Virus record (IMG/VR): IMGVR_UViG_3300017700_000412
Coordinates: 1 to 24,227 of that record
Reading direction: 5' to 3' (one strand)
Length of the DNA stretch: 24,227 nucleotides
Source: a virus
Taxonomy: Duplodnaviria; Caudoviricetes
Shown: piece by piece, positions 1 to 22,371 of the stretch
Layout of the letters: every line of letters begins with the position of its first letter
Numbering within the stretch: the stretch's first letter is position 1
Notes under the pieces: model-generated
The model's database searches: none
What the model was told of the DNA's origin: nothing
What the model saw: only the letters and a program-made list of their open reading frames with translations
Translations under genes and position numbers: made by a program

Positions 1-290
1 CGCTTCGGCACCTGGGCCCATGCCTCATCGGCCGACAGCCATTGCAGCGGGCGGCGGCGCTCGATCTGGCTGGCAATGTCGGCCGGCGTCGGAGTGAAGC
101 GGCCCCGGTCCGGGTCCATGCGATGCGCGGACAGCGATTGCTCGACCAGTTCCAGCGGGTAGCGCTTCAGGTCGTTGAAGAAAATAGCCTTGGCGGCCGG
201 GCTGATGATCTTGGCTGCCGCGCTCTTGCCGATGACGTCGAATGTATCATCCAGCATCTTGAAAAATGCGGGGCTGTCGCTAGGCTTCAT
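1..290 (-). CDS. Phage replication protein, DUF6475-like or helicase-loader (P-like) position; runs off the window edge
   Basis: Own translation from ATG at 290: MKPSDSPAFFKMLDDTFDVIGKSAAAKIISPAAKAIFFNDLKRYPLELVEQSLSAHRMDPDRGRFTPTPADIASQIERRRPLQWLSADEAWAQVPK. The H..D..RGRF.P.PAD...ADEAW pattern is typical of these proteins. Overlaps the stop of the upstream gene. Confidence 0.7.
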   Translation of the reverse strand, partial: MKPSDSPAFFKMLDDTFDVIGKSAAAKIISPAAKAIFFNDLKRYPLELVEQSLSAHRMDPDRGRFTPTPADIASQIERRRPLQWLSADEAWAQVPK

Positions 291-636
291 TTTCGAATGT
301 CCTTTCATCGTCATAGCCAGTGATCAGCCTGCTGGCCGCTTCACTGTTCGCCCGCTGAACGTCCACCAGCGCCAGTTGTGGCGCGCCGTGGTAGCGCTGC
401 AAGGCTGGCTGCTCGACCTTCACCGGGTAGATGTTCGTCCAGCTGTTCATGATGGACTGGTTCAGCACGTCGGCTGGATCCTGGTGGTGTTCCATGCAGA
501 TCTTGGCCAGGCGCGTCAGCATCAGCCCCTTGGCATGCTCGGTCATCGGGGCTTTGCGCACCTTGCGCATGTGGATGAATTCCGCCCATTCGACAGGGGG
601 CGGAAAGTCCGGCGTGATCAGTTCGAGCTGGCTCAC
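280..636 (-). CDS. Small replication protein resembling the C-terminal helical domain of phage replication initiators
   Basis: Motif WAEFIHMRK..KAPMTEHA..LML..L....P..VLNQSIMNSW..IYPVK. GTG start overlaps the upstream TGA. Sits directly before the DUF6475-like gene. Confidence 0.65.
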   Translation of the reverse strand: MSQLELITPDFPPPVEWAEFIHMRKVRKAPMTEHAKGLMLTRLAKICMEHHQDPADVLNQSIMNSWTNIYPVKVEQPALQRYHGAPQLALVDVQRANSEAASRLITGYDDERTFENEA

Positions 637-848
637 GGTTTCACCTTTGTGTTCAGGCCAAGCAGGCGCATCCAGATCGTGCGGCGTGGCTCCCAGAGGT
701 TCATTTGCGGCACGCCCTTCTCCGGTCCTGCGCAGCGCCCGCCATATTTCATTTCGAGGTCGCAGAAAGTGCCGGCGCGGTCACAAGTCATGTAATCCCT
801 CACCACGCCGCGCTGATGGGCACAGTTGAAGCATGTCTTGGTGGTCAT
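633..848 (-). CDS. Hypothetical Cys-rich phage protein
   Basis: 71 aa with CxxC and further Cys residues. 4-bp overlaps with both neighbours. Confidence 0.65.
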   Translation of the reverse strand: MTTKTCFNCAHQRGVVRDYMTCDRAGTFCDLEMKYGGRCAGPEKGVPQMNLWEPRRTIWMRLLGLNTKVKP

Positions 849-1060
849 GGTCGCGCCTTGCAGATTTGCTTGCCATCGGCGCCCATGCGTGGAGTTAGCC
901 CTTCAGCGCCCAATACGGTGGCAACATACTGGCACCCGGTTCCGGTGTCCGTGTACACGTAAACCCGGCTTTTCGTCAGTTCTTTTGTCTGCATTTGCCC
1001 GTCATCATTTGACGAGCAGCCAGCAAGGAACAGCATGCAAATTATCGTTGCGGTTTTCAT
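845..1060 (-). CDS. Small lipoprotein, DUF6440-like
   Basis: Start reassigned to ATG at 1060: MKTATIICMLFLAG-C lipobox, then YTDTGTGCQY...GLTPRMGADGKQIC. ATGA overlaps. Confidence 0.75.
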   Translation of the reverse strand: MKTATIICMLFLAGCSSNDDGQMQTKELTKSRVYVYTDTGTGCQYVATVLGAEGLTPRMGADGKQICKARP

Positions 1061-1398
1061 TCTGGATCCTTCAGTGCCTCGATGGCGCGTACCGCTTCGC
1101 TGCTGGTGCACTCGTACGGGATGGACACCTCCCAGACAGCGGCCTTTGCCTCTTCCAGGATCGCATTGCGCGATAGGGCCGGGCCTTCGGACTTCAGGCG
1201 CTCGGCAAGCATGGCGTCGGCAACCCGGTAGGCATGGCACGCAAAGTCAACAGGTTCCCAGATAGCGATGTCTTCCTTTTCGTAGCCGAGCGACGTTGTT
1301 AGCGCATGCGCGGCAAAGTAGTCGCGCAGGGTCATGCCGCTGTCACGCTTCCAGTCTTCTGGCGCTGGAAATGCTGGGCCGCCATCGTTGGTGCTCAT
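1057..1398 (-). CDS. Conserved phage hypothetical protein (GGPAFP...GMTLRDYFAA family)
   Basis: MSTNDGGPAFP...GMTLRDYFAAHAL...AYRVADAMLAER is a widespread phage small-protein motif. It has a C-terminal RNAILEEA...AIEALK extension. Confidence 0.8.
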   Translation of the reverse strand: MSTNDGGPAFPAPEDWKRDSGMTLRDYFAAHALTTSLGYEKEDIAIWEPVDFACHAYRVADAMLAERLKSEGPALSRNAILEEAKAAVWEVSIPYECTSSEAVRAIEALKDPE

Positions 1399-1904
1399 GC
1401 TGTCACCTCTTCGCACTTAGCGCACAGTTCCCGCAAGCGCTTTTCTTGGGCGGCCCTGGCGGCGTCACTGGCGGCGGCCCTGGCGGCGGCCCAGGCGGCC
1501 CAGGCGGCGTCACTGGCGGCGGCCCAGGCGGCGGCCCAGGCGGCGTCACTGGCGGCGGCCCTGGCGGCGGCCCTGGCGGCGTCACTGGCGGCGGCCAATT
1601 CATTCTGACTCGCTTCGCCGTTTGCAAAGCGCTCGGCAACATCGAGTGCTTCAGTGCTGCGCTTGTCGGTCATCAGGTGTTGCACCTGGCGAGCGCACCA
1701 GACCGCGTACAGCCGGATTTCTTTATCGCGTCCCTTCACTGCGCGCAGGCACCACAGCGCGTCATCCAAGCCGTTGCTGTCGAGGACTTGCACGATGCTG
1801 ACCGGCTCGTCGTCGGCCTTCGTCTTACCCAGCGTGCGCAGCAACTTCTCCCAGCCTTCATGACATGGCGAGTGTGCGCGGATTTCGTTTAGTGTCGTTT
1901 TCAT
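1395..1904 (-). CDS. Phage hypothetical protein with Ala/Trp/Arg low-complexity repeat (AAWAAA family)
   Basis: N-terminal TTLNEIRAHSPC.EGW.KLL..LGKTKADDEP..., RLYAVWCARQV, followed by ASDAARAA/AAWAAA repeats. Confidence 0.85.
   Translation of the reverse strand: MKTTLNEIRAHSPCHEGWEKLLRTLGKTKADDEPVSIVQVLDSNGLDDALWCLRAVKGRDKEIRLYAVWCARQVQHLMTDKRSTEALDVAERFANGEASQNELAAASDAARAAARAAASDAAWAAAWAAASDAAWAAWAAARAAASDAARAAQEKRLRELCAKCEEVTA
1450..1597. repeat. Coding tandem repeat built from ~12-nt GC-rich units (GGCGGCGGCCC[T/A], GGCGGCGTCACT)
   Basis: Direct inspection. The units encode AARA, AAWA and ASDA. Confidence 0.9.
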
Positions 1905-1924
1905 GTGTTGTGCCCGTTATGGTT

Positions 1925-2325
1925 TTGGTTGTAGCAAGGGCAAGAAGGGTTGGAATCCCACCCCACTGAGCCATTGCTTTCTATTACTTCCTGAAAGAAC
2001 TACTCCCGCCTGAAGCTGAACATTCTATTTCCGGGCCCCCATTACGCATGAGCTAAGCGCCAATTCCATCCCTATTTGCCCGTTCCTGGGGTGCCTGTTC
2101 AAAGCCCCTCGCGCCGCCCTTGCTAGTCAAGCGCATCGTCTTTTCTCCCGTGCCGGCAACAACATGGCCGCTTTCAATGACGCTCGGGGTGCGGTCGATG
2201 TGCGGGCCAGAAACGCAAAAAGCCGCTTTGGTTTTCTGCATTCAACTTGTGCGGGCAAGTTTGGCCGAGGCCGTGAACACAGAAACCGAAGCGGCTTCTC
2301 TTCGTCAATGCCCGCACATCAACAG
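1925..2325 (-). ncRNA. Putative large structured leader or non-coding RNA with C4/CI-like 5' domain
   Basis: Only large gap in a tightly overlapped operon. Nested inverted repeats: 2197-2207/2310-2320, 2220-2244/2274-2297, 2244-2249/2256-2261 and 1932-1941/2116-2125. Candidate promoter upstream. Confidence 0.5.
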
Positions 2326-2332
2326 GACAGAT

Positions 2333-2360
2333 ATTCCCACGGTAAATTGATCGTCGTCAA
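2333..2360 (-). promoter_or_regulatory. Candidate sigma70 promoter for the structured RNA and replication operon
   Basis: Minus-strand TTGACG (2355-2360), 16 nt spacer, weak -10 GGGAAT, with an AT-rich upstream stretch. Confidence 0.35.
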
Positions 2361-2378
2361 GCACTTTCTTGAAATAAA

Positions 2379-2807
2379 TCAAGCCGACTCGCCATCAACC
2401 ACCCGAACAGCCACCACAACGCACGGCGCCAGCGAATACAACTTGCGCACACGTAGCTCAACAACCTGGCTGTCGTCCACCCACACGATACCGTTGCACG
2501 CATCCTTGACGCCCTTCAGTACGTTGTCCGCGTCGGGCTTCTTCGTGGCGCGCACGGTGCCGGCCGCTGCGGCTGCGCGCTTTGCTTTCGACCAGCTGGA
2601 CGGGATTGGCATGCGCAGTTCCAGCAGGATTTCTATGGGGCTGGCGCTGGGCGGCAGGTGGCGCATAGCGGCCTTGGCATAGCCGGCTACGCGGGCCTCG
2701 TAATCGGCGGTCTTTTTCGGCGTGTAGGCGCGGGCAAAGCCGCCTACCATCGTGACGCGGGCGCGGGCCTTGGCCACAGGGGCGCCGGGTATGGTGAATT
2801 GAATCAT
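2379..2807 (-). CDS. rusA: RusA-family Holliday junction resolvase
   Basis: IPG.PVAK.R.R...YTP.KT..YE, KPDADN..K...DA.NG....DDSQVV catalytic motifs. Confidence 0.9.
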   Translation of the reverse strand: MIQFTIPGAPVAKARARVTMVGGFARAYTPKKTADYEARVAGYAKAAMRHLPPSASPIEILLELRMPIPSSWSKAKRAAAAAGTVRATKKPDADNVLKGVKDACNGIVWVDDSQVVELRVRKLYSLAPCVVVAVRVVDGESA

Positions 2808-3211
2808 GGCATGAGTCCCATCGTTTTTAGAATCTGTTGGCTCTCAGCGCGGGCCAGGTCAAAGTACGTGTCGAGCAGCGAACGCGGCATGCGGCCAGCG
2901 TAGCCACCATCCAGGAAGGCGTGGCAGGCAAAGCACCCGTAGCAACCCTCTTCATCCCGAGCCTTCAGCCCCATGCCCTTGCCGTCCGAGTAGCTGTTGC
3001 TGTGGCACCACACGGTTGTCGCTGGGTCGAAATTGCACACCGGAAGGCGCAGCGTGCACGGCTGACCCTTGGCAGATTTCTGAATCTTGGTCAAGGGCTT
3101 GCGTTTCGCTTTCAGGCGTTTTGGTGCCGAATCCGGCACCTTCTGTTTCGCTTTGAAGCCATTTCGCGCCAGTTGGGACGTGCTGCGTTTCAGTTCGGTG
3201 CGGCGCATCAT
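2804..3211 (-). CDS. DUF1364/YbcO-like Zn-binding nuclease-domain protein
   Basis: SAKGQPCTLRLPVCNFDPATTVWCH...GKGMGLKA.D....GCFACH..LDG. Start overlaps the upstream TGA. Confidence 0.85.
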   Translation of the reverse strand: MMRRTELKRSTSQLARNGFKAKQKVPDSAPKRLKAKRKPLTKIQKSAKGQPCTLRLPVCNFDPATTVWCHSNSYSDGKGMGLKARDEEGCYGCFACHAFLDGGYAGRMPRSLLDTYFDLARAESQQILKTMGLMP

Positions 3212-3837
3212 CACAGGCACCCCCACTGCTCTGCAAATGCGGCGGCAACAACAGCATGGGTTCGGCTACGCTCTTTTTCTCGGTCGGGGCCTGGGCCCAT
3301 CCGCCAGCAGCTTTGATGTATTTTTTCGTAGTCGTCTTCTGTATGCGATGGCACAAGCAAGGGTAGATTTTTCAACCACAGGCAAGCGGCTTTCGATTCC
3401 GGGCACCCGAACATCCAAGGTTGAACTTTCTGTGTGTACTTCCCAAGGCGCGACATGGCCAGCCCGTGCGGCTGCGAATTTTCGATTGCAGAGCGCTTCA
3501 CGTTCGCCTCTTGGAATGCCTTGAAAAATCTGATTCCCTCTTCGAAGTCATCAAGCCTGTTAGGGTAACGTGGGTGCCGGCGCCGCTGCTCAAATGGCAG
3601 TTTGCTGTCCTCTGGATGGGAAAGCCACTGCACGCCCGACAGCGTATTGAAAGTGCAGTAGGGGTGAGCAATCATCAAATCCCACTGCCTGTCGAGAAGC
3701 CGCAGTACATCTCCCTGCACATGCCAGCCGTGTGGCGATTCCGTTGGGCGCAGATCGCAGGAAACTGCCGTGTGCCCACGGCAGGCAAAGGCGTCACGCA
3801 CACGCCCTGAGTACTCGCATGCCACAAGCACCCTCAT
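3211..3837 (-). CDS. Phage DNA cytosine methyltransferase-like protein (short SAM-dependent type)
   Basis: MRVLVACEYSG.VRDAF...GH...SCD, WDLMIAHP.CT, IEN, QPW.FG..E.K..CLWL..LP.L, RS.T....A.A.A.QW. Confidence 0.75.
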   Translation of the reverse strand: MRVLVACEYSGRVRDAFACRGHTAVSCDLRPTESPHGWHVQGDVLRLLDRQWDLMIAHPYCTFNTLSGVQWLSHPEDSKLPFEQRRRHPRYPNRLDDFEEGIRFFKAFQEANVKRSAIENSQPHGLAMSRLGKYTQKVQPWMFGCPESKAACLWLKNLPLLVPSHTEDDYEKIHQSCWRMGPGPDREKERSRTHAVVAAAFAEQWGCL

Positions 3838-4289
3838 GCAGGCACCAGTCCAAACAGGTGCTCCAGGATCGGATCGTGCACCACCTTTCCCGGCGTCCAG
3901 CGATTGGAGAATGTGCGGTTCGGTGCATCGCCCTTGGCCGGCTTTTCGATACGCTTATCCTTCGGCAGCAAACCGGCGCCCAGCAGCTTGATGAAGGCGG
4001 CGACTTTGGCCGCGTCCTTCGTGATGCCGTAGACTTCGATGCCCTGGCTGTGGTCGCGCACCTGGCGATATGGCTTTTCCTCGACGCGCAGCACCAGCAT
4101 GACCTCGGCCGCCTTCAGGTCCAAGATGTATTTCCTGATGCCTGATTCCGAAAAGTGGAACAGGTCCTGCATTTCCTCGCGGCGCAGTTCGCCCAGCTTC
4201 AGGCGCTCCACCATCTTGAGCAGGTTTTCAGTGCGGCGCCGCGTGGCAGCGGTACAGCGCACGCGCTCGGTTGCAATTGGCCTTGTCAT
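3834..4289 (-). CDS. Hypothetical protein, possible winged-helix DNA-binding domain
   Basis: LRREEMQDLFHFSESGIRKYILDL resembles an HTH. ATGA overlaps on both sides. Confidence 0.6.
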   Translation of the reverse strand: MTRPIATERVRCTAATRRRTENLLKMVERLKLGELRREEMQDLFHFSESGIRKYILDLKAAEVMLVLRVEEKPYRQVRDHSQGIEVYGITKDAAKVAAFIKLLGAGLLPKDKRIEKPAKGDAPNRTFSNRWTPGKVVHDPILEHLFGLVPA

Positions 4290-4816
4290 TGTCTTTTCCT
4301 TTCAAATGGTTCGATGATGGATTCCATGCCCTGCTCTGCCACTTGCGGCGACAGGCTTGGCCAGAGATATTTCTGTGCGTGCTCGGTGCGCAGGAACTTG
4401 ACCACACCTTCGTGGAAGTACCGCATTTCGTCCTCTTCGCACTGGTCGTAGCTGATCGATTTCGGCACCGGAAACACGCCACCTTTCGGGCCGGGCATCC
4501 ATGTCACGTAGCCGCTTCCAACCTTCAGCCACAGCCTGAACTGGTCGAAATTATCGATGCGTTCCTGGGCCTTGAACACCTTCGACACCAGGGCCATGTG
4601 CTTGCGATGAAACCAGCCTTCGCGGGGCCGTTGCGTCTTGATGGAAAAGAACTCGCCCGATCCGGCCTCATTGAGCGCACGGCAGAAGCGATACCAGCCC
4701 CGCGTGTCCTTCGGCGTGGCCCCGCTCAAGTGCTCGAACAGGAACCGGCGCACTACCGCTGCATCAGCCTCGTTCAGGCGCGCATCGGTCTGCTTGACCA
4801 GGACGATTTCCATCAA
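4286..4816 (-). CDS. DUF1367-family (NinB/Orf-like) protein
   Basis: R...FHRK..AL....F..Q, F..FR.WL...SG, PKSISY.....DE.... Confidence 0.75.
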   Translation of the reverse strand: MMEIVLVKQTDARLNEADAAVVRRFLFEHLSGATPKDTRGWYRFCRALNEAGSGEFFSIKTQRPREGWFHRKHMALVSKVFKAQERIDNFDQFRLWLKVGSGYVTWMPGPKGGVFPVPKSISYDQCEEDEMRYFHEGVVKFLRTEHAQKYLWPSLSPQVAEQGMESIIEPFERKRQ

Positions 4817-5037
4817 TCGTCCTGAGGTGGCGCCAATTCGTCAACGCGCTTGAGCGACCATTTGCAGCTACGCATAACCGCAATTCGCACCGAGTCGCTA
4901 ACCTCGATAACGCCATTGCGAATTTTGCTGATATTGGCGCGCTGCACGCCAATCAATTCAGACAGACCAGAATCACGCTTGATGTTATTTTCCGCCATGA
5001 TCGCGTCTAACAGAGGGTGTGGTTTCTTCATTTTCAT
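4813..5037 (-). CDS. Cro-like XRE-family HTH regulator
   Basis: LLDAIM....IKRDSGLSELIGVQRANISKIRNG. First gene after the leftward promoters, with RBS AAAGGA. Confidence 0.8.
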   Translation of the reverse strand: MKMKKPHPLLDAIMAENNIKRDSGLSELIGVQRANISKIRNGVIEVSDSVRIAVMRSCKWSLKRVDELAPPQDD

Positions 5038-5069
5038 TCCTTTCGATTTGGTATCAAAGTTCCAAATTA

Positions 5070-5116
5070 ATTCTACTTTGAGCGCGGATTATAAGCAACA
5101 AAAATAAATGAACCAA
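5070..5116 (-). promoter_or_regulatory. Two overlapping leftward sigma70 promoters
   Basis: TTGCTT(5093-5098)-17nt-TAGAAT(5070-5075) and TTGGTT(5111-5116)-17nt-TATAAT(5088-5093), both on the minus strand. Confidence 0.65.
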
Positions 5117-5117
5117 A

Positions 5118-5160
5118 GACTCAAATAGTTGTTGACCGGACTCAAATAGCCGCGTATCGT
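5118..5160 (+). promoter_or_regulatory. Rightward sigma70 promoter with repeated operator-like boxes
   Basis: TTGACC(5132-5137)-17nt-TATCGT(5155-5160). GACTCAAATAG occurs at 5118-5128 and 5139-5149. Confidence 0.7.
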
Positions 5161-5198
5161 TACATACATCGGATCAGCAAACAACCAAGGGGAACAAA

Positions 5199-5426
5199 AT
5201 GAATTCACAGAAATTTGAAGCAGTCCAAGCATGCGGCGAATCTTTCTACCGCGCCTACCTGAATGGCACCGTCGTGATGACCGCGAACGTGAAAGCCGCT
5301 GATGAATTCGGCTTCATCGCTGTTTCGCCAATCTGGACGAATGGCGCAAAGTCTGGGAGTGCTGACCATAACGCGATGGTAGAAGCCATCCGATCCCGCG
5401 TAATCGCTGGCCCAATCGCCGCCTAA
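5199..5426 (+). CDS. Hypothetical early protein
   Basis: 75 aa ORF with RBS AAGGGG, first gene after the rightward promoter. Confidence 0.7.
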   Translation: MNSQKFEAVQACGESFYRAYLNGTVVMTANVKAADEFGFIAVSPIWTNGAKSGSADHNAMVEAIRSRVIAGPIAA

Positions 5427-5908: not shown

Positions 5909-6711
5909 AGAAGAAAATCAGGGTCCGGGCTTCGTCGTTCGGGACGCTGTTTGACTGCGCGCACCGCTTCGAAGGTGAGCAGCTTCTAAAGCTGTACAGG
6001 GCCAGCAGCCTGCGCGCATGGCTGGGCACGTCGATCCACGCCAGCACGGCCGCATTCGACCAGGCGCGCATCGAAGGCAAGGCGATCACTGCCAACGATG
6101 CGGCCGATGTGTTTGTTTCGTCGTTCTGGAATCCGTCCGAAGAGGTCGATTTTAAGGATGCGAAATTGACGCGCCAGCAGGCGGAACTTATCGGCCTGAA
6201 GCTGCACGCGAAATACTGCGCTGAGATTGCGCCTGCGATGCACTACGAGTCGGTGGAAATGGCGCTGCGTCCGCTGGAAATCGACTGCGGCGGCGATCTT
6301 ACCATCGTGCTGACTGGCACCATGGACCGGGCCCGCGTGGCGCGCATGGCCAGCGGCAAGGTAATCAGCGACGTGAAGACAGGCGGCCGGCTGATTGACC
6401 AGGAAGGAATCGTGACCACGAAGGGCCGCGCCGCGCAGCTGGGAACCTACCAGTTGCTGAGCGAGCACACGGATGGTGAGGAAACCAGCGGCGGCCAGAT
6501 CATCGCCTTGCAGACCACCACAGCCGCCCCTGTCGGGGTGAGCAAGGTATTCGACGCCAAGCGCGTGATGGTGGGCGACGAGAACCAGGAAGGGCTGATT
6601 TCCATGGCAGCCAAAATATTCAAGATCGGGCTTTTCACGCCCAACCCGATGAGCCAGCTTTGCGATAAGAAGTACTGCGCCCGTTGGGGTACTTGTGCTT
6701 ACAAAGGATGA
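5905..6711 (+). CDS. PD-(D/E)XK exonuclease, Cas4/AddB-like with probable Fe-S cluster
   Basis: R.SS.....DC (N-terminal Cys), GT..H, VE..L, GT.D, ISDVKTG, QL..Y, and C-terminal PNP...LC..KYC..W..C. Confidence 0.85.
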   Translation: MKKKIRVRASSFGTLFDCAHRFEGEQLLKLYRASSLRAWLGTSIHASTAAFDQARIEGKAITANDAADVFVSSFWNPSEEVDFKDAKLTRQQAELIGLKLHAKYCAEIAPAMHYESVEMALRPLEIDCGGDLTIVLTGTMDRARVARMASGKVISDVKTGGRLIDQEGIVTTKGRAAQLGTYQLLSEHTDGEETSGGQIIALQTTTAAPVGVSKVFDAKRVMVGDENQEGLISMAAKIFKIGLFTPNPMSQLCDKKYCARWGTCAYKG

Positions 6712-6713
6712 TC

Positions 6714-7205
6714 ATGATTGATGCAATTCTTGCGCTATACGCCCAGGGGAAAACCTGCGCACAAATAGCAAAATTAACTGGCAAGTCAACTATGACTGTT
6801 CATAGGATGATTAAGAAATCAGGTATTGAGATGCGCAAGTATGGTGATTTGCATCGTGGCCGCGAATGGTCCGAAGCTCGCCGCGCACACCACCCAGCAA
6901 AGCCTGTTCGTGCTGTTGATGCTCCGCGTGGGTATGACATATTGACGCAACGGGCCCTTGGGAATAAAAGCGTTTCGAAGCACGGATATGTGGTTATCCG
7001 GACAGGACGTAAGAAACGCCAGTACGAACATATTTTAGTGGCAGAAAAAGCATTGGGGCGCCCTTTGGAAAAGGGGATGGTCGTACACCATATCAACTGC
7101 AACAGACAGGACAACCGGCCGGAAAATTTGCTGGTGTGCAGTACCGGCTACCACCTGGCATTACATGCGCGCATGCGGCGCGATCCATATTGGAAGCAGT
7201 TCTAA
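6714..7205 (+). CDS. Freestanding HNH homing endonuclease with N-terminal HTH
   Basis: GY.......YEH.LVAE..LGR.L....VVHHIN.NR.DNR.ENL. Lower GC than flanks. An alternative start exists at 6708. Confidence 0.9.
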   Translation: MIDAILALYAQGKTCAQIAKLTGKSTMTVHRMIKKSGIEMRKYGDLHRGREWSEARRAHHPAKPVRAVDAPRGYDILTQRALGNKSVSKHGYVVIRTGRKKRQYEHILVAEKALGRPLEKGMVVHHINCNRQDNRPENLLVCSTGYHLALHARMRRDPYWKQF

Positions 7206-8474: not shown

Positions 8475-9191
8475 ATGTCCCTCGACATTTTCCAACTGGT
8501 GAAGGAGCGCTGCTTGCTCTCAAACCTGAACGTGCGCACCGAAATGCACGGCGATGAGCGCGAGCCGGCCGTTGATCTGAATTTCGAATTCAGCGGCGCC
8601 AACAACCTGCTCCTGAAGTTGCACCCGGACCTGCGCGGCGCGTTCTACCGCGCCGACGATACCAAAGACCTGGCCACGCCGGACCACATGCCGCACCTGC
8701 GCTTCCCGCTGCTGGGCACGATTTCCTGGGACTTGGAAATTCCGCGCACCCGGCTGCGCATCCATGACGTGGACGATCCTGCCAATGACGTGGTGCTGGG
8801 CGGCGGCAAAACCAACAAGTTCAAGCTGACCATGCTTGACGGCGGCACGGTGAAGTGGCATTTTCGCTGCCAGTTCTCGAAGCCCGACGAAGACAGCATC
8901 GCCAAGCTCATGCGCGTGCTGAACCAGGCGGTGCCGGTCAGCCTGGAATGCGCCGACGAAGAAGTAAAGCCGGATAACTTCGAGCAGGCAGAGCAGGCCG
9001 GCAAGGCGCCGATGAGCGAAGCACGCGAGAAGGCGGAAAGCCTGTTCGACGCACCGGCCAGCACGCTGGAATTGTCGCCTGATGATGTTGTTGACGCCAC
9101 CTATATCCCGGAGCCTGCAACCAACGTCGAGCCGATCACCAAAGCCAAGCGCGGCGGCCGTAAGGTTGCCGGCGCCCTGGCAATCGAATAA
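8475..9191 (+). CDS. Conserved phage hypothetical protein
   Basis: LNVRTE.HGDE.EPAVDL motif, RBS AAAGG, strongly biased codons. Confidence 0.75.
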   Translation: MSLDIFQLVKERCLLSNLNVRTEMHGDEREPAVDLNFEFSGANNLLLKLHPDLRGAFYRADDTKDLATPDHMPHLRFPLLGTISWDLEIPRTRLRIHDVDDPANDVVLGGGKTNKFKLTMLDGGTVKWHFRCQFSKPDEDSIAKLMRVLNQAVPVSLECADEEVKPDNFEQAEQAGKAPMSEAREKAESLFDAPASTLELSPDDVVDATYIPEPATNVEPITKAKRGGRKVAGALAIE

Positions 9192-9679
9192 TGGGAACGC
9201 CTATTCCCATTTCCGTTAGGTTCTGGCCGAAGGTCGAAAAAACGCCGACTTGCTGGAACTGGACGGCCTTTAAAGACAAGAATGGTTATGGGCAAATCGG
9301 GAGCGGGGATAGGTCAAAACATGAATATTCTCACCGTGTCTCATATGTTCTTGCCTACGGCGAAATACCAAAAGGTATGCATGTGTTGCACAAATGCGAT
9401 AACCCATCATGCGTGCGCCCAGATCATTTGTTTCTAGGCACCCATGTGGACAACATGCAAGATATGACGAAAAAGGGCCGAGGAAAGCAAATTGCGGCGG
9501 GTAGAAAAGGCGAAACAAACGGCAACCACCGCCTGACTACCGATCAAGTAGTGGAGATTAAGAAGGGGCTTGCCAAAGGCGAATCGCAACGAGAAATGGC
9601 AAGGAAATTTGGCGTTTCAAAAACTTTGATTTATTACATCAAGCTCGGAAAAACCTGGGCCCATATAACGGGAGAATGA
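9191..9679 (+). CDS. Freestanding HNH homing endonuclease with C-terminal HTH
   Basis: RFW.KV.K...CW.W......GYG, HR.SY....G.IP.G..VLH.CDNP.CV.P.HLFLGT..DN..D, then LT...V..I...Q...A..FGVS. Low GC. Confidence 0.92.
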   Translation: MGTPIPISVRFWPKVEKTPTCWNWTAFKDKNGYGQIGSGDRSKHEYSHRVSYVLAYGEIPKGMHVLHKCDNPSCVRPDHLFLGTHVDNMQDMTKKGRGKQIAAGRKGETNGNHRLTTDQVVEIKKGLAKGESQREMARKFGVSKTLIYYIKLGKTWAHITGE

Positions 9680-20079: not shown

Positions 20080-21653
20080 TATTCGATCCTCCCGGTAGCT
20101 GGGTTGTATTTCCTCACTGCACCAGAATCCTTATTGGCGCTAACAGTTTTCGCCGCAGTGCCGCCCTGCGCATCATCAAGAATTGCCTGATTGATGCGCA
20201 TGATAGTCTTGGCTGCTTCGCGCTTCTGCCCAGCTGGAATAGTTGGGTCTCCCAGATTGCCTGCCGCCTCTTTGTAAAGCGCCATGTCCTTATCGGATGT
20301 TGGCCCCGGCTGTTTTTCAATGCGCGAGGTAAGCCCAGCACCAATAACAGCAAGCTGTGCGGCAGCTTGGGACGATTTGCTGCTGTGGCCAACCATATTC
20401 CCGGCCTTATCGCGCAAGGAACCTACCGTGCTACCGGTGGCAATATCGAGCAACGGCTCTGCCATTTTCAACAGTTCAACCGTTGTCTTTGCCCCTTTGA
20501 TTTTTGCCAGCTCTTCAGGTGCCTGTGCAGCCAACAAGCGGGCTTGCTCGACCGCGTAAGCAGTCCGAACGGCGGATGTTTCTGCCTCTCTTTGGGCATC
20601 GGTTTGCAGCTTAATACCCGGCGTTGTCTGCTGTCCTGGGCCAATCTCGCGCCGGATGGCCGCCAGGTCGCCTGCCTTGCGCGGGTCGCTGTCGGGCCGC
20701 GCCATGATGGCCGCCATTTCCTGCTGAAGGATTTCGCTACGCGGCTGCACGCCTGGCGTTGGCGCCGGCATCTGCGTGCCTGCCGGGAAGCCCTGCGCGC
20801 CCTGTTGCTGGGCCGCTGGTGCTTGTTGCGGCTGTCCGCCTGCCATGGCTGCCGCCTGCTGGCGCGTCATCATCTGCGGGCCTTGTGGCGTGTTCACCGT
20901 GACCATGTCGAACCCGGCTTGCGCGCCGGCTTCCGCTGCCTTGACCTGGCCGGCCTGTTGCGCAATGACTTCGCTTCCAGGAATGGCTGCCATGGTCGGC
21001 TGGCCGTTCGGCCCGAAGCCACCGGCAAAGCCGCTCTTGAAGTCCGGCGCCGTCACCATCGGTTTCATGTCGCCATCGTAAATTGTCGTACCAGGAGTGG
21101 CCTCGGTGCGGCCTTTCTTGAGCGCTTCGGCAAATTTGGCAGCACCCATCTTCTGCGGGTCGATGCCCTGGGCGCGCATGTTCTTCTGTTCGTCGGTTTG
21201 CGTGAGGATGTTCTTCATCAGGTCCGCGCCCAGCGTCGGGTTGAATTCATAGGCCGCCGTGGCCTGCTCCCATCGCCTGTTCATTTCAGGATCGGCAGGC
21301 GCGTCACCAGCCATGGACGCCTGTGGCGTAGCGCCCAGCGTGGCCTGCTCGCTGTTCGGGTTCATCTTTGCCAGAACTGCCGCCATGCGCTCGCGCTTCT
21401 GTGCGCCAATGTCGGCTTGCTTCTCATCGACTTTCTTCTGCCCGTAAGCGCTGGCCGCAATCTGCGCCAGCTGCGAGAACATGCCGAGCTTCCCTTGCGG
21501 GATGGCGCGCCCTGACACAATCTGTGTTTCCTGCGGCGTGGATGCGTTCCGGCGCAAGGCGTCGATCATCGCCTGGCGGCGCTGCAATTCCATCTGCTGG
21601 GCTTCCAGGTCGCCGTTGCCGGTACCGAAGCTGATTGTTTTTACGCTAGGCAT
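20079..21653 (-). CDS. Internal virion / DNA ejection protein
   Basis: LQRRQAM.DAL...QIVSGR N-terminus, G..SDKD...Y..AAG C-terminus, ends KYNPATGRIE. Confidence 0.65.
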   Translation of the reverse strand: MPSVKTISFGTGNGDLEAQQMELQRRQAMIDALRRNASTPQETQIVSGRAIPQGKLGMFSQLAQIAASAYGQKKVDEKQADIGAQKRERMAAVLAKMNPNSEQATLGATPQASMAGDAPADPEMNRRWEQATAAYEFNPTLGADLMKNILTQTDEQKNMRAQGIDPQKMGAAKFAEALKKGRTEATPGTTIYDGDMKPMVTAPDFKSGFAGGFGPNGQPTMAAIPGSEVIAQQAGQVKAAEAGAQAGFDMVTVNTPQGPQMMTRQQAAAMAGGQPQQAPAAQQQGAQGFPAGTQMPAPTPGVQPRSEILQQEMAAIMARPDSDPRKAGDLAAIRREIGPGQQTTPGIKLQTDAQREAETSAVRTAYAVEQARLLAAQAPEELAKIKGAKTTVELLKMAEPLLDIATGSTVGSLRDKAGNMVGHSSKSSQAAAQLAVIGAGLTSRIEKQPGPTSDKDMALYKEAAGNLGDPTIPAGQKREAAKTIMRINQAILDDAQGGTAAKTVSANKDSGAVRKYNPATGRIE

Positions 21654-22371
21654 CGCAAACCCCCATGTGCTGCAAATCGTTCATGATTTCTTGTCGGATC
21701 AGGATCAAGCGCCGCTGCACTTCGGCGCCCTTCTCTGGGTGGTGCTTCTTCAGGTACGGCAGTTTCCACTGGTTCTCTTGCAGGTAGGCCGTGCAGGACC
21801 AGCAGTCCAGCGAGGTGTTCGCGTCGGCGTAGTGCGCCGGCAGCAGGGCGCTACCCTTGATGTAGCCCATCACCTGGGCGTCGGTCCAGCCTTCCAGTGG
21901 GAACCAGTATTCGGCGCCGGCCATCGTGTCGCCGCTCTTGACCGGGCTCTTGTGGTGGTCCGCAGCCTTCTGGCCCCGGATAATCAGCGTGGCGCCGGCC
22001 GCCAATGTCGCTTCGTGCATCGGCTGCATCAGATTGGCGTAGCAGCAGGCCAGGAAGCCCTGTAGCGGCACGCGCTGCTGTTGGGTGAGGAACTGGGTTT
22101 CGCGGTGGTTGCGCACCGGCAGAACGTCAACAGGGTAGCCGTTGGCCTCAACCTGTTCCGGCTGGCGCCCGGCCACTTCCACGAAGTTCGGGCACATGGC
22201 GCGCACCAGTTCCATCTGGGCCAGCGTTTCCGGCAGCGCGGCGCCCGTGTTCATCCACAGAACAGTGATGCGGTGCAGGTGCTCCCGCAGCAGCAGCAGG
22301 CAGCAAATGCTGTCCTTGCCGCCCGAGAACTGAAGCACGATATTGTCATGCCGGTCGAGAGGGCTGCTCAT
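21646..22371 (-). CDS. PAPS/APS reductase family PP-loop protein, probable Fe-S
   Basis: LQFSGGKDS PP-loop, NTG, CC pair, RGQK..D, PL..WT..QV..Y, SLDCWSCT. Confidence 0.88.
   Translation of the reverse strand: MSSPLDRHDNIVLQFSGGKDSICCLLLLREHLHRITVLWMNTGAALPETLAQMELVRAMCPNFVEVAGRQPEQVEANGYPVDVLPVRNHRETQFLTQQQRVPLQGFLACCYANLMQPMHEATLAAGATLIIRGQKAADHHKSPVKSGDTMAGAEYWFPLEGWTDAQVMGYIKGSALLPAHYADANTSLDCWSCTAYLQENQWKLPYLKKHHPEKGAEVQRRLILIRQEIMNDLQHMGVCDA

Follow-up and report, generated by a model that had tools for sequence, protein, structure and literature searches.

A widespread, uncatalogued two-part RNA of uncultured tailed phages couples a probable C4/CI-like attenuator with a large knotted module and is a probable replication-initiation element

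Initiators of the lambda type carry an N-terminal domain that binds iterons inside their own gene, and a phage that loses both the domain and the iterons needs another origin. This problem is raised by the tailed-phage sequence IMGVR_UViG_3300017700_000412, analysed here over a stretch of 24,227 nt (the window; the contig stops at base 1, and the window is all that is seen of this genome). One of its arms reads, in the direction of transcription, HTH, NinB-like, unknown, methyltransferase, YbcO and RusA genes, a gap at 1905..2378, four small genes, a 118-aa ORF (636-280) and a truncated loader-like gene. The 118-aa ORF matches only positions 220-292 of a 346-position O-like initiator profile and its nine best relatives have 107-140 aa, while no iteron array was found in positions 1-5200, which hold only a coding repeat (1437-1616); the original prediction for this locus had likewise seen neither an N-terminal domain nor iterons. 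A full HMMER search recovered both short and full-length forms of the initiator, where a word search for longer proteins had found none, and repeat arrays were present in all three full-length initiator genes checked. Foldseek gave no match to the model of the mini-initiator, nor did Pfam to the loader-like fragment (1..290). The gap had rightly been singled out as exceptional in an arm whose neighbouring genes abut or overlap; its placing at the head of a replication operon holds in so far as the initiator lies downstream, but the two do not directly adjoin, four small genes standing between them. We asked what this gap encodes, and whether it could supply the origin that the initiator appears to lack.

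Judged from folding and sequence comparison, the gap encodes a structured RNA of ~390 nt on the minus strand, composed of two modules and absent from the catalogued RNA families (Table 1; we introduced the labels a1, a', a'', P0-P5 and PK1-3 for this element, taking a1 and a' over from work on c4). The minus-strand fold has z = -3.0, better than 100 of 100 shuffles, compared with z = -1.7 for the plus strand. This signal comes from the 5' domain (2323-2194, z = -9.2); taken by itself, the 3' domain (2195-1930) does not exceed its shuffles in stability (z = +0.44), and its structure therefore rests on covariation. All three stems originally proposed are present at their positions, the outer one extending over 14 bp rather than 11 (P0, 2323-2310 with 2207-2194) and the inner one (2297-2274/2244-2220) containing G-U pairs, one mismatch and one bulge before a U run. 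Rfam had no match in the window and, in 34 related loci, nothing matching this core; ARAGORN called no tRNA or tmRNA, and a literature search found no description of this RNA. The three core motifs are absent from the searched part of the supplements to PMC10690425, where pieces of the RNA may be listed as unnamed candidates. The forecast of an undescribed phage ncRNA of ~400 nt thus agrees with the length, the covariation and the lack of both an Rfam match and a conserved ORF. The discrete RNA it implied was not seen in seven RNA or possible-RNA sequencing runs and one unlabelled run for the relative L177: the contigs are short and of low depth, and they fall on parts of the flanking genes just as on parts of the element. 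One run (X4, record 11), possibly an RNA library, contains a 2,277-base high-depth contig matching L177:2315-2351, with a partial core, a changed P1 and unlike flanks.

Table 1. Features of the gap and of its neighbouring genes, in window coordinates
Feature	Coordinates	Strand	Details
RusA resolvase	2379..2807	(-)	upstream neighbour of the gap
sigma70-like promoter	2331..2360	(-)	-35 2360-2355, -10 2336-2331, 18-nt spacer, 8/12 consensus bases; predicted start near 2323
leader with key a1	2309..2323	(-)	a1 at 2318-2309; leader forms the 5' side of P0, the outer helix
C4-like long stem with two capping hairpins	2220..2297	(-)	hairpins 2272-2263 and 2260-2245; a', complement of a1, in 2260-2245
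U run 3' of the stem, predicted intrinsic terminator	2214..2224	(-)	stem and U run in 91/101 loci
a'', second complement of a1	2194..2207	(-)	3' strand of P0; made on read-through only
conserved double-pseudoknot core, 60 nt	2135..2193	(-)	P1 2193-2181; P2 2171-2152; PK1 partner 2151-2145; A-rich linker; PK2 partner 2140-2135
subfamily-specific distal domain	1932..2136	(-)	P3; PK3, P3 loop 2125-2116 with 3' end 1941-1932; P4 2108-2088; P5 2082-2078/2036-2032; helix 2006-1968; hairpin 1959-1947
first downstream gene, 169 aa, unknown function	1395..1904	(-)	Ala-rich repeats; start codon 28 nt past the RNA
O-like initiator, 118 aa	280..636	(-)	C-terminal domain only; predicted three-helix fold
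probable helicase-loader gene	1..290	(-)	cut by contig end; PHROG common to a DUF6475-carrying relative

Several further observations concern the genes of the window. The 169-aa gene (1395-1904) has a 12-nt Ala-rich repeat and 391 relatives in phages, and often lies near the element in the window subfamily. In the recombination arm two HNH-HTH endonuclease genes (6684-7205 and 9191-9679) stand on either side of a RecT-like gene, and a gene with a PAPS-reductase domain (21646-22371) lies among the structural genes.

Among 147 loci obtained by other means, only 2 matched the gap over its whole length. Patterns drawn from these two led to 8 more loci and thence to at least 119, with about 200 estimated (L225 was dropped as false); removal of duplicates left 92 distinct cores, and the element occurs in more than a hundred sequences from uncultured phages. 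A pattern taken from the leader loops retrieved 61 loci, none with the element, because these loops are variable. Isolated phages and 72,556 plasmids yielded chance matches only. A scan of species genomes gave 53 matches, of which 5 were real; all 5 lie on metagenome-assembled contigs (the window-subfamily match among them is binned as Noviherbaspirillum), and the betaproteobacterial labels of three of these suggest that the host is probably a betaproteobacterium. A tyrosine integrase was detected in none of 42 carriers, compared with 5 of 7 non-carriers, and a weak serine-recombinase match in 1 of 30 near-complete carriers; ParA was absent from all 30, and the S24 repressor from 49 genomes, controls included.

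Module 1 comprises a sigma70-like promoter followed by a ~130-nt C4/CI-like leader with a terminator. A promoter scan of both strands of the window found none over threshold, the site at 2331..2360 included; among relatives, a promoter with at least 9 of the 12 consensus bases lies upstream in 40/101 loci, against 5% of shuffles, the window's scoring 8. The key a1 can pair with a' over at least 7 bp in 72/91 loci (11% when the strands are taken across loci, 8.5% when shuffled), and the two co-change in relatives; by the same measure the complementarity of a'' to a1 is weaker (57/91 against 39%). Folding of the window predicts a succession of structures: a1:a' is best before the terminator is complete (-33.2 kcal/mol), at the U run the terminator prevails (-47.9 against -41.8 kcal/mol), and later a'' closes P0 (-73.1 kcal/mol). 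Of the 67 loci passing spacing filters, 57 recover the early a1:a' fold, 63 have the terminator as the most stable structure once the U run is reached, and 60 form P0. A forced a1:a' fold lies at a median of 19 kcal/mol above the terminator fold; according to the models the common spacing could also let a1:a' clamp the finished terminator hairpin, and the switch may run in either direction. The original suggestion that the element gates the replication genes gains support from the conserved promoter, terminator and alternative pairing, and we consider module 1 likely to be an attenuator whichever reading of module 2 holds.

Two other notions about this region were abandoned. An attenuator working through a leader peptide, or a conserved leader ORF, is rejected: an ORF (2241-2053) crosses the window's terminator, and across the loci ORFs through the terminator are not enriched (25/60 against 21.5 expected), so that no conserved protein ORF spans the gap. 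The weight originally laid on the repeat of TGCCCGTT (at 1911 and 2077) is likewise misplaced: its copies do not covary, and the 2077 copy, inside a conserved helix, stays constant while the leader loop (a') changes in relatives, which shows that the repeat is not a target pair. As a separate matter, five loci (L221, L223, L229, L257 and L265) share a motif within an additional hairpin of ~90 nt, which is inserted between the module 1 terminator and the core.

The leader invites comparison with the P1/P7 c4 antisense RNA (RF01695) and the P4 CI RNA, with which it shares a long stem with two apical hairpins in the window (many relatives have only one) and, in the 72/91 loci given above, an upstream target complementary to the loop. 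It differs from c4 in several respects: 1) the Rfam score is under the gathering threshold, the best relative reaching 31.4 against 45 bits. 2) The element is without a downstream a2/b2 target covarying with the loop. 3) No icd/ant (antirepressor) genes occur in the window or are recognised among the neighbour clusters of the family. 4) The stem of the element is itself a U-run terminator, and it is followed by a strand complementary to a1 and by the large knotted module 2. Membership in C4 is ruled out by the Rfam score and the absent downstream targets.

Module 2 is a ~265-nt RNA with three covarying pseudoknots. Its most conserved part, the double-pseudoknot core (2193-2135), had been missed in the original prediction. 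In this core the P1 loop pairs with a strand past hairpin P2 (PK1), and the strand after an A-rich linker pairs with the P2 loop (PK2). Over 92 distinct sequences 92.3% of the cells are paired, against 74.0% in shuffled ones, with 289 double changes against 96, and slid controls reach at most 52%; some of the invariant columns were imposed by the search pattern, P2 and PK2 not being among those imposed, and in L056, found by a covariance model rather than by pattern, PK1 is changed on both sides. The 10-bp stem 2116-2125/1932-1941, formerly read as a nested closing stem, begins in the loop of hairpin P3 and is hence a third pseudoknot joining loop to tail (PK3). In the window PK3 is perfect and encloses 174 nt, 103 of them purines, close to the ~175 purine-rich nt first described; it has 8-10 bp in 15/15 window-subfamily sequences, in five sequence versions. 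Across the nine helices of these 15 sequences 98.8% is paired against 88.7%, with double changes in 18/44 pairs, a test that leans in favour of the distal helices because these come from a consensus fold of the same alignment; conserved G-U pairs are also present in it. The distal domains of 99 loci are rich in runs of at least four G (285, against 88 such runs of C), which occur in 86/99 loci and are missing from 5/11 window-subfamily loci. The family-wide surplus of G runs on the transcript strand speaks for an RNA-specified origin, their weakness in the window subfamily against it. The ColE1 origin transcript has a G-tract.

One and the same core is joined to at least three different distal domains, in groups of 55, 35, that of the window and several small ones. 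Two relatives (L171 and L173) have insertions of 130-140 nt past the core, forming a long hairpin within the first distal stem, with intact flanks; three others (L460:3219-3480, L463 and L480) combine a divergent core, with a short P2 and a different PK2, with a distal domain of the window type, upstream of a ~315-aa initiator-loader fusion.

What kind of molecule might module 2 be? A self-contained fold closed by PK3, and a core shared by at least three distal domains, are features of a stand-alone large RNA in the manner of GOLLD, ROOL or raiA, which would be cut from the leader and act in trans, its neighbours being merely co-transcribed; we find this improbable, given that no terminator or second promoter lies behind module 2, that the link to replication and recombination genes is tight, and that no discrete RNA was seen. 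It is yet harder to credit that the leader is processed or switched by the core acting as a self-cleaving ribozyme or a ligand-binding aptamer: the compact double pseudoknot, the invariant unpaired bases and the position directly after P0 speak for it, but Rfam gave no ribozyme or riboswitch match, the invariance is partly imposed by the search pattern, and no metabolite theme is common to the downstream genes. The structure might also act as single-stranded DNA, as a priming or loading signal, an idea to which the replication context lends itself and which recalls that comparative methods also find ssDNA motifs (in the consulted part of PMC5737381); the conserved G-U pairs, the upstream promoter and the U-run terminator make it highly improbable.

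The genes around the element bear on its function. Across the family, RusA- or VRR-NUC-like genes are common upstream, and downstream there are usually short initiators, primase-helicases or SF2 helicases, with a start codon usually close after the RNA and a second promoter rare (0/24, 2/15 and 0/11), an arrangement that a plain 5' leader would also show. In the 30 near-complete carriers, headless initiators belong to phrog_678 (7 genomes) or phrog_270 (5 genomes, one of the matches running across stops); a primase-helicase is found in 8 others and a full-length initiator in 2, and no member of these three families in the last 8. The two with full-length initiators, G002 and G027, are both complete and carry the initiator away from the RNA, that of G002 with its own repeat array; in G012, which has a headless initiator, the sole RNA copy detected is on the other arm. 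Five near-complete carriers (G022, G036, G037, G013 and G024) match neither of the two initiator profiles nor DnaB_C, and the early arms of G022 and G036 have RecE- or RecT-like genes, which suggests host-run replication. DnaA boxes (2 against 0 in 63 loci) are not a general feature, and the GC-skew extremes of 16 genomes do not track the element.

The association with initiators was gauged on 80 initiator loci collected independently of the RNA, of which 28 were headless, that is, without the N-terminal domain, 42 full-length, and 10 ambiguous or at an edge and set aside; requiring 2 kb upstream left 23 headless and 34 full-length loci. The RNA family of the window lies upstream of 9/23 headless and 0/34 full-length initiators (Fisher p = 9e-5, uncorrected for kinship; 3 of the 9 positives share contigs with the models). 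Eight more headless loci have an RNA like Betaproteobacteria-1 (RF02932), which brings the count to 17/23 against 0/34 (p = 7e-10, uncorrected for kinship, and 4 of these 8 built their own profile or query); the remaining 6/23 headless initiators have no RNA detected upstream. In the three such loci scanned the second RNA is Betaproteobacteria-1 itself; the RF02932 gathering score was passed in 3/7 loci scanned, the count of 8/23 being from the profile. This orphan RNA occupies the same slot as the element, following a module of promoter, leader and terminator and preceding headless O-like initiators; it differs in sequence and fold, and its covariance model matches neither the window nor the carriers of the core, the loci that pass its gathering score serving as positive control. 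Where it precedes headless initiators in L446:3477-3596, L454:3606-3726 and L457:3769-3889, the conserved stretch reaches ~100 nt beyond the Rfam model.

It is this association that speaks for the originally proposed role in replication initiation. A headless initiator beside the RNA suggests that the RNA likely both switches on the replication genes and marks the start of DNA copying, and the same pairing of two unrelated RNAs with two initiator families points to the RNA as the missing origin. We give about even chances to a two-part RNA in which an attenuator gates read-through and module 2, once transcribed, sets the origin, probably by forming an R-loop. Its working could be pictured as follows: 1) the leader key a1 would pair with a' before the terminator is complete, and the metastable fold modelled here would delay the terminator and allow read-through. 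2) On read-through, a'' would capture a1 and free the a' loop. 3) By analogy with P4 CI and P1 c4, released leader RNA may pair in trans with new transcripts and favour termination, and would thereby limit replication and exclude phages with the same key; the a1/a' covariation needs only pairing in cis, and it is the analogy that suggests action in trans. 4) After read-through, module 2 would fold beside the polymerase and either hold the DNA open as an R-loop or tether the headless initiator. 5) The helicase would then be loaded without iterons, while the same transcript would continue into the replication genes.

Precedents for such an origin come from plasmids. The initiation of ColE1 replication by RNA II involves a hybrid, RNase H, Pol I and PriA (in the part of PMC3640518 consulted), and, as predicted for the element, a folded transcript there sets initiation under RNA control. 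The element differs in that it has no plasmid sequence match, its control RNA is on the same strand, its locus encodes a mini-initiator and a loader, and its transcript runs on into genes. The consulted part of PMC5737381 describes ARRPOF, GEBRO and PAGEV, structured plasmid motifs of 223-349 nt tied to replication regions, and an ARRPOF plasmid that replicates without its rep gene; the element has no Rfam match, and these motifs belong to plasmids rather than phages and to other hosts. A bolder version, which we put forward as a tentative proposal, is that the knotted nascent RNA binds the headless initiator and tethers it to the transcribed DNA. The two would form an RNA-guided origin-recognition particle that replaces the DNA-binding half and the iterons in widespread non-integrating phages; an immunity switch made of RNA alone would precede it, and RNA families could substitute for one another in the slot.

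The principal rival is a pure transcription regulator, in which module 1 attenuates, module 2 with its 60-nt core is an antiterminator like put, and the co-occurrence with headless initiators comes from common descent. The element heads replication and recombination operons (in 6/11 window-subfamily loci with context it heads the recombination arm) and in G027 a structural one; full-length initiators are present in the carriers G002 and G027, and genes follow it without a second promoter. In G003, G040 and L456 one copy lies on each divergent arm, which would be expected of an arm regulator and equally fits two divergent origins. On the other hand, 40/42 carriers have only one strong copy, and a pure regulator leaves unexplained the 17/23 against 0/34, a pattern to which two families of RNA and two of initiator contribute. 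The put RNA of HK022, a temperate phage with a full initiator, is a nascent RNA that heads early operons on both arms, and in this it resembles the element; at ~70 nt with two stems it is much smaller and simpler than module 2. A purely regulatory element is, in our judgement, a doubtful but serious possibility. The structural operon of G027 merits separate mention: there, at C1:26155-26210 (L214), as in L163, L217 and L224, the element lies between a terminase gene and an HNH gene, and G027 also has a serine recombinase and a full-length initiator; RNA and HNH gene in loci of this type are possibly a mobile unit.

The element is a real, uncatalogued and widespread phage RNA whose first module has the build of a C4/CI attenuator and whose second is large and knotted; it belongs to neither C4 nor Betaproteobacteria-1, and its probable role is in starting replication. 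Even as a mere regulator it would be a new and common RNA with three pseudoknots, whose compact 60-nt core lends itself to structural study, and a switch working without a repressor in phages where no integrase, S24 repressor or ParA was detected. If the RNA does specify the origin, it would explain the replication of many environmental tailed phages whose initiator has lost its DNA-binding domain, suggest what the orphan Betaproteobacteria-1 RNA may do, and show that origins specified by RNA occur in lambda-like phages as well as in small plasmids.
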